From a virus (lineage: Duplodnaviria > Heunggongvirae > Uroviricota > Caudoviricetes), in IMG/VR virus record IMGVR_UViG_2585427785_000003: a stretch of 4,789 bases of DNA; one strand, written 5' to 3'. A program made the position numbers and the translations under genes. The stretch's first letter is position 1; each line of letters begins with the position of its first letter. The notes under the pieces were generated by a model that saw only the letters and a program-made list of their open reading frames with translations, was not told the origin of the DNA and searched no databases. Shown piece after piece: positions 1-927 of this stretch.

Positions 1-467
1 AACACATCAATGATGAACGCCACATAAACGAAGCCCTGCCATGTGCTGACGTAAGTAAAATCAGCCACCCACAGCTGGTCTGGTCGTTCTGCCACGAACT
101 GACGGTTTACGCGGTCGCCTGCGGCAACGGCTTTCCGGCTGATGGTCGTACGGACCTTTTTACCCCGGAGAACACCGGCAAGTCCCATAACCGCCATGAG
201 ACGTGCCACAGTGCATCTGGCCACTCTGATACCTTCCCGTAACAACTGACGCCAGACTTTACGCACACCGTATACCTTGTGATTTTCATCGTATACGCGC
301 TGTATCTCTTTCTTCAGCCAGTCATCGCGCTGCGCACGGGCACTGCGTTTATCAGGACGATGTCGCTGTTGCTGACAGTGGTAATACGTTGACGGGGCAA
401 TATGCAGTTCGCTGCATAGCGGTCCGCCCCCGTACTGCTCACGCAGCTTATCCAGCAGTGGCATCAT
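1..467 (-). CDS. IS3-family transposase OrfB (DDE integrase domain), N-terminal ~155 codons; 3' part lies outside the window
   Basis: The minus-strand frame starting ATGATG at 467-462 translates [155 protein letters not shown] with no stop down to position 1. It is in the -1 frame relative to orfA and overlaps the orfA stop, as in IS3-family orfAB arrangements. It is absent from the ORF track only because it runs off the window. Confidence 0.85.
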
Positions 468-790
468 TTTTTCCAGAGGCGGTCGAACTCCGCCTTCGCA
501 AAATAAGCGGAAGCCTGGCGAAGGATATCGTTACTGCGGCGCAGTTCACGATTTTCACGTTCCAGCTCTTTCAGACGCTGACGTTCAGCGGTGGTGAGCC
601 CGCCATCACCGCCTCCGGTATCCCGCTCATGCTGGCGTACCCAGACAAGCAGAGTCTCCGGTGTACAGCCAATCTTTGGGGCAATGGAACAAATTGCCGC
701 CCACTGTGAGTCATATTCGCCCTGACTTTCCAGAACCATACGGACTGCCCGTTGACGGACTTCGGGGGAAAAACGAGTATTTTTAGTCAT
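464..790 (-). CDS. IS3-family transposase OrfA (helix-turn-helix / leucine-zipper DNA-binding subunit), 108 aa
   Basis: The ORF-track protein [108 protein letters not shown] matches the IS629/IS1203 OrfA as I recall it. It ends LWKK-stop at an A6 run (plus-strand T-run 467-472) immediately overlapping the orfB ATG. Confidence 0.9.
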
Positions 791-819
791 CCTGTTTACC
801 TCTTTCTCAGGAAGTTTAG

Positions 820-844
820 TCTCCAGGATCCCCGGGGCGGTTCA
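820..844. repeat. Terminal inverted repeat (IRL) of the IS element
   Basis: This is the terminal ~25 bp of the IS, ending ...GGGGCGGTTCA at 844 on the plus strand (TGAACCGCCCC... when read from the IS end inward). The exact IR length cannot be fixed because the opposite end is outside the window. Confidence 0.5.
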
Positions 845-923
845 AGTCTTATCTGCAGCATCAGTACTCCTTTAAGATTGAAAATCCTGCCAATAAGCAC
901 GAGCGTCCTCATCATAAATATCT

Positions 924-927
<4 letters not shown>
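845..927 (+). pseudogene. 3' remnant of a lambdoid class I holin (S) gene, interrupted by the IS insertion
   Basis: The frame ending in TGA at 925-927 (ATGA overlap with the endolysin start) translates ...[26 protein letters not shown]-stop. This resembles the charged C-terminal tail of lambda-type holins (recalled lambda S C-terminus ...[22 protein letters not shown]). The frame is cut by the IS end at 844, so the N-terminal transmembrane part is missing from this side of the IS. Confidence 0.5.

Follow-up and report, generated by a model that had tools for sequence, protein, structure and literature searches.

The window analyzed here, a 4,789-bp stretch of DNA covering the late region of a Qin-type lambdoid prophage, very probably records the transposition of an IS629/IS1203-type insertion sequence (IS) into ydfR. 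In this reading the holin gene was not the target and probably lies intact past the IS, and the consequences for lysis are those that we infer below. The original prediction had placed the element inside the holin gene, with the lysis cassette decapitated; homology and gene order instead identify the interrupted gene as ydfR, which lies between the holin and lysozyme genes (Table 1).

Table 1. Features of the insertion sequence and the adjoining lysis genes, in window coordinates
Feature	Position	Strand	Basis
IS3-family insertion sequence, IS629/IS1203-type, left 844 bp	1..844	-	98-98.8% nucleotide identity to annotated copies
IS orfB, N-terminal 157 codons, -1 frame relative to orfA	3..473	-	Open to window edge
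ALIL pseudoknot	393..509	-	Rfam RF01497, 116 bits (gathering score 50), E 1.4e-30
IS orfA, 108 aa, HTH transposase part	464..790	-	Pfam HTH_Tnp_1 1e-11; NCBIfam transpos_IS3 positions 1-86
IS terminal inverted repeat, left end; read from outside, TGAACCGCCCCGGGGATCCTGGAGACT	818..844	-	Direct reading
ydfR (DUF1327) 3' remnant: last 2 nt of codon 77, codons 78-103, stop	845..927	+	83/83 nt identity
rrrQ, SAR-type phage lysozyme, 177 aa, intact	924..1457	+	Pfam Phage_lysozyme PF00959 1e-23
rzpQ, Rz-like inner-membrane spanin (DUF2514), 165 aa, intact	1454..1951	+	Pfam DUF2514 8e-39; phrog_312 4e-57
rzoQ, Rz1-like lipoprotein spanin, 84 aa, lipobox LTSC, +1 frame within rzpQ	1647..1901	+	phrog_11621 2e-8

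Identity of the interrupted gene

The 83 nucleotides that follow the IS are identical at every position to ydfR of the K-12 Qin prophage and of a relative with an empty target site (GCA_044594545.1, locus L017), and against K-12 Qin the identity is unbroken over 845-1457, starting at ydfR nucleotide 230. The frame at 844-927 encodes 27 residues followed by TGA (925-927), and its stop overlaps the lysozyme ATG at 924 as ATGA (924-927), just as the original prediction had described. The same prediction took the encoded tail for the C terminus of a lambda-type holin, and here the evidence points elsewhere. By BLASTP, 26 of the 27 residues are identical to YdfR residues 77-103; the sole Pfam match of the tail is to DUF1327 (positions 78-93); and BLASTP against the S21-type holin of relatives returned no alignment. 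Among phage genomes, positions 845-1500 found matches of 99.8-100% in Tritos and PhiR42_1, and in both phages a 312-nt gene annotated as ydfR or YdfR family has the bases matching 845-927 at its 3' end. The YdfR proteins of relatives are 103 residues long, end in ...EKVESYLQHQYSFKIENPANKHERPHHKYI/L, and match Pfam DUF1327 (PF07041) at 1e-53.

Gene order leads to the same assignment. The synteny set comprised phages Tritos and PhiR42_1 together with 20 genomic loci fetched by the exact RrrQ protein and a DUF3950 variant. In all 22 uninterrupted loci, an S21-type holin gene is followed after a 4-nt gap by ydfR, which overlaps rrrQ as ATGA, and then by rzpQ with rzoQ embedded; the holin-ydfR-rrrQ-rzpQ/rzoQ order of K-12 Qin is likewise the same. 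The holin of these relatives has 71 residues (68 as called in some loci), belongs to Pfam Phage_holin_2_1 (P21 holin S), and ends in ...AARGE. The remnant thus agrees with the DUF1327/YdfR family both in sequence and in its place between holin and lysozyme, while it has no similarity to the S21-type holin, and full-length YdfR is modeled without a hydrophobic segment. An insertion in the holin gene, with 845-927 as the holin C-terminal tail and the N terminus past the IS, would suit a tail that is short, polar, and joined to the endolysin start by an ATGA overlap, as is often seen in holin genes, but the tail is that of YdfR by both BLASTP and Pfam and in every relative a gap of 4 nt separates the end of the S21-type holin gene from the ydfR ATG, which leaves this candidate with next to no probability. 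No holin family was found with an ending like that of the remnant tail. The ATGA overlap with the endolysin is an unreliable marker of a holin gene, since it is ydfR that adjoins the endolysin in Qin-type cassettes. Judged from sequence, then, the interrupted gene is ydfR and not the holin gene, and what the relatives lead us to expect beyond the IS is a segment encoding YdfR 1-77 where a holin N terminus had been proposed.

Downstream of the remnant, the endolysin and Rz/Rz1 genes are intact, as originally reported, and RrrQ, RzpQ, and RzoQ are identical to the K-12 proteins (the exact RrrQ protein is encoded in K-12 at locus L009). Against the PDB, RrrQ matched the P21 lysozyme (3hde/3hdf; 2e-16 for 3hde) and RrrD (4zpu; 4e-16). 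An E-x8-D-x5-T motif and a Gly/Ala-rich hydrophobic N-terminal segment, both read from the sequence, mark RrrQ as a SAR-type endolysin with predicted membrane release. The i-spanin RzpQ and the o-spanin lipoprotein RzoQ, encoded in the +1 frame within rzpQ, form a two-component embedded spanin pair.

No NCBIfam model matches YdfR, the PHROGs that match it are all labeled "unknown function," and it has no sequence homologue in the PDB. Across an alignment of 23 DUF1327 members, residues 1-72 are nearly invariant, while the tail varies in both sequence and length. Proteins of this family (from this alignment and from positions 10300-10611 of L017) range from 103 to 183 aa and have hypervariable C-terminal tails, and the matching PHROG profiles (105-296 positions) cover the N-terminal core only, from residue 1 to about residue 77-99. 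The AlphaFold model of YdfR, which is of moderate quality (pLDDT 68.5), places three β-strands and a helix over residues 5-72, with a pLDDT below 50 for residues 74-103; a Foldseek search of the model against the PDB and BFVD gave no match at E <= 0.001. The only experimental data that we found on DUF1327/YdfR come from a 2026 study that reports binding of YdfR, via residues 1-72, to the N-terminal catalytic half of RNase E, along with co-purification of RNA, and that lists YdfR as cytosolic (PMC13232886). The invariant 72-residue core of DUF1327 coincides with the RNase E-binding region of that study. Because the conserved core comprises residues 1-72, an insertion at codon 77 removes the variable tail of YdfR alone.

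The insertion sequence

The original identification of an IS629-like element with an end at 844 was confirmed by several lines of evidence. Over positions 1-844, nucleotide identity is 98-98.8% to elements on E. coli chromosomes and plasmids whose transposase genes are annotated as IS3 family, IS1203, or IS629. The terminal repeat (TGAACCGCCCCGGGG... read from outside) has its last base exactly at 844, and five complete 1310-bp IS629-type copies are bounded by the same 13-nt terminus. The element has the IS3-family arrangement of an orfA with an HTH domain and an overlapping orfB, with a signal for the -1 frameshift that joins them; the ALIL pseudoknot is a programmed -1 frameshift signal in IS3-family elements. 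The orfB translation matched positions 91-241 of NCBIfam transpos_IS3 (2e-41). Its catalytic C-terminal part lies beyond the window, which holds only 844 bp of this IS copy. Of the two terminal inverted repeats expected in the IS629/IS1203 group, the window has one, with a 5'-TG start, TGAACCGCCCCGG, that ends at 844. The transposase genes run in the direction opposed to the late operon.

The copy in the window is a distinct variant. Among 5,426 complete E. coli genomes and the PLSDB plasmids, no copy exceeds 98.8% identity to it, and its terminal repeat has GGGGATCC where the comparator copies have GGGAATCC. Records of the exact OrfA variant are confined to three related draft assemblies, where six short contigs carry it; in the same drafts, the IS variant also interrupts a transposase gene of IS30 type and is present on an IncFII plasmid contig.

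The far side of the insertion sequence

The window is identical to a complete draft contig of 4789 bp (JOQI01000099.1, assembly GCA_000714015.1), one of the six that carry the OrfA variant; GCA_000714175.1 and GCA_000700725.1 are sister assemblies. Since it is a whole contig that starts within the IS, the assembly broke at its left edge, inside a multicopy IS, and both window edges (1 and 4789) are probably repeat-induced assembly breaks. For the same reason, the state of the holin gene in this strain is not deducible from this contig. The closest empty-site relative is 100% identical to the window over 845-4789, lacks the IS, and has both ydfR and the holin gene intact. Its target-site sequence, GAAAAAGTTGAGTCTTATC, predicts a left junction of ...GTTGAGT/TGAACC (the slash marks the join) together with a duplication of AGT, and the AGT at 845-847 is plausibly one copy of this 3-bp target duplication. 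We propose that an IS of approximately 1310 bp inserted at ydfR nucleotides 230-232 (codon 77/78), duplicating AGT. The far junction would then read ...GAAAAAGTTGAGT (ydfR nucleotides 1-232) joined to TGAACCGCCCCGG, and the upstream fragment, if present and expressed, would comprise YdfR 1-77, with the conserved core kept, plus roughly 50 IS-encoded residues. By synteny, the holin gene should be intact approximately 230 bp past the far IS end.

Searches for records of either junction were negative within their scope. The exact right-junction strings were absent from the 5,426 complete E. coli genomes, GTDB representatives, IMG/VR, and JGI metagenomes; the 39-aa open reading frame spanning the junction is not on record; and look-ups with RrrQ and the DUF3950 variant returned uninterrupted loci only. 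For the far junction, predicted YdfR 1-77 with read-through into the right end of the IS was searched against a protein collection. The predicted YdfR(1-77)::IS fusion was not among the 1,267 homologues on record, where other ydfR::IS fusions were present.

An alternative hypothesis is that the IS end at 844 is genuine while the far end has lost its contact with ydfR, the upstream late region, including holin and Q, having been removed by an IS-associated deletion or inversion or by IS-IS recombination. The predicted 5' fusion product is missing from the records although other ydfR::IS fusions are found there, and the strain has this IS variant in several copies, among them those in the IS30-type gene and on the IncFII plasmid contig, which could serve as recombination substrates. 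However, each of the five complete comparators shows a simple insertion with a 3-bp duplication, and absence from a fragmented draft, in which contigs are broken in the IS and short contigs are dropped, is weak evidence. We therefore regard such a rearrangement as unlikely. Far less probable still is an assembly artifact, with the IS and ydfR joined chimerically at a repeat. The window is indeed a draft contig ending inside a multicopy IS, but the IS terminal repeat runs to its very last base before the join, which is internal to a single-copy gene, as expected of a real insertion; three samples have the same contig on record, and equivalent insertions are present in closed genomes.

Putative consequences for lysis

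Simple insertion into ydfR leaves the endolysin and spanin genes separated from the holin gene and the late promoter by the IS, as the original prediction had stated, and this much holds as geometry: rrrQ, rzpQ, and rzoQ lie 1.3 kb further from the holin gene and the Q-dependent late promoter. A scan of positions 1-2400, which takes in only 844 bp of the IS, detected promoter-like sites on neither strand and, on the plus strand, no terminator-like site. It gives no support for an outward promoter carried by the IS or for a block to read-through. In lambdoid phages, Q-modified RNA polymerase reads through terminators, and late transcription would therefore probably cross the IS into rrrQ.

An effect at the level of translation is plausible. 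Within 13 nt of the rrrQ ATG (924) there is no Shine-Dalgarno sequence, while AGGAG is found upstream of ydfR and GGGGGA upstream of rzpQ. Together with the overlap of the rrrQ ATG and the ydfR stop, this suggests an obligatory coupling of RrrQ translation to that of ydfR in Qin-type cassettes. With the IS in place, an in-frame TAG at 817-819 precedes the remnant, and no start codon occurs between this TAG and 927. The ydfR tail would thus go untranslated and endolysin output may fall. Loss of coupling would be the sole plausible route to the lysis-delayed phenotype that had originally been proposed.

Whether or not endolysin output falls, the prophage background bears on how the insertion is to be read. 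The prophage of the empty-site relative is structurally deleted: a 212-aa portal fragment comes after Nu1, the large terminase, and gpW, and pin and ynaE come next. The lysis cassette of this lineage was thus probably already part of a cryptic prophage, and since the closest relative with an empty site is already deleted, the insertion most likely represents near-neutral decay of a cryptic prophage and not a lysis-disabling step. It introduces no new element or mechanism and is ordinary prophage decay by a known IS type. The significance of this case is correspondingly small, adding one more IS629-family insertion in a lambdoid and probably already cryptic prophage, and its outcome is mainly corrective. 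The locus nevertheless offers natural alleles for the dependence of rrrQ on ydfR and for the role in lysis of the RNase E-binding protein YdfR.

Recurrent insertions between holin and endolysin

Insertions of IS629-family elements in lambdoid E. coli prophages are well documented, and some alter phage behavior (PMC10810198, PMC10462455); elements of the IS629 group have inserted in the Stx prophages phiPA2 and phiPA8 (PMC10810198) and in the Q-S region of Stx2a phages (PMC10462455). Five genomes in which both IS ends are sequenced carry independent 1309-1310-bp IS629-type insertions in the ydfR-rrrQ segment, each with a 3-bp duplication and an intact holin gene upstream. Four are in ydfR, namely in O39:NM F8704-2 (nucleotides 81-85, duplication AAG), NCTC9038 (nucleotides 50-53, TAA), 2014C-4423 (nucleotides 69-71, AGC), and KTE98 (codon 97, AGC); the fifth, in 14EC007, is in rrrQ (nucleotides ~114-120, CAA). 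Other strains have a Mu-like prophage at ydfR codon 81 and a further element, its type not assigned, at ydfR codon 80, and another ydfR allele has an IS629-type fusion at codon ~62. Counting the one in the window, the independent insertions in ydfR number at least six of IS629 type, together with one Mu-like prophage and one other element; rrrQ has one IS. All such insertions fall within approximately 370 bp (ydfR in L003, L024, L025, L035, L032/L033, and L034; rrrQ in L026). The single orientation shared by the IS copies found has no interpretive value, because both search routes favored it.

This clustering could mark a hot spot, or the target may just be dispensable. Given the hundreds of thousands of genomes sampled and a target that is probably dispensable, the recurrent hits in ydfR may be neutral. 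It is conceivable that ydfR-rrrQ is a recurrent target for transposable elements in which insertions are kept by selection, either because they uncouple and attenuate endolysin expression in a cryptic lysis cassette or because they remodel the YdfR tail while sparing the 72-residue core, so that they would represent domestication and not neutral decay; we think this improbable.

Comparison with known systems

The IS in the window shares with the IS629/IS1203/IS3411 group of E. coli and Shigella the combination of orfA and orfB, -1 frameshifting, the ALIL pseudoknot, and the TGAACCGCCCCGG terminus, while it differs at 10 or more of 844 nucleotides from every copy in the 5,426 complete E. coli genomes. 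The lysis genes resemble the cassette of phage 21 (pinholin S21, SAR endolysin R21, and Rz/Rz1) in having a homologous lysozyme and embedded spanins, and the holin of the relatives is of the same family. Unlike phage 21, the Qin-type cassette has an extra cytoplasmic gene, ydfR, between holin and endolysin, and it is this extra gene and not the holin gene that was hit by the IS.

Another close system is the K-12 Qin cryptic prophage, whose gene order (essQ-ydfR-rrrQ-rzpQ/rzoQ-cspI-ymcF-ynfN-gnsB-...-cos-nohQ) is the same in the window over 845-4789. Several features of the shared region are worth recording. An Rfam match to the cspA thermoregulator at 2168-2553 (plus strand; 112.8 bits) spans cspI, its coding region (2314-2526) as well as its 5' leader, and this prophage cold-shock gene keeps a cspA-type RNA thermosensor. 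An extra T in a T-run at 2814 relative to K-12 MG1655 gives a YnfN reading frame of 76 aa (ATG at 2798, to 3028), as in many other strains, and the K-12 version has 51 aa. Because the 76-aa form is common to many strains, the K-12 ynfN allele looks frameshifted. An exact lambda-type cohesive-end sequence (cosN), GGGCGGCGACCT, occurs at 4426-4437 (plus strand), approximately 180 bp upstream of Nu1, with 0 matches expected by chance (200 shuffles). Nu1 itself, the terminase small subunit (4617-4789), is cut at codon 58 by the window end.

Over 845-4789, the window is 99.7% identical to K-12 Qin. The extra T at 2814 is the single difference over 845-4126, and a few substitutions lie near cos and Nu1. 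At the lysis cassette, ydfR is intact in K-12 Qin and interrupted by the IS in the window.
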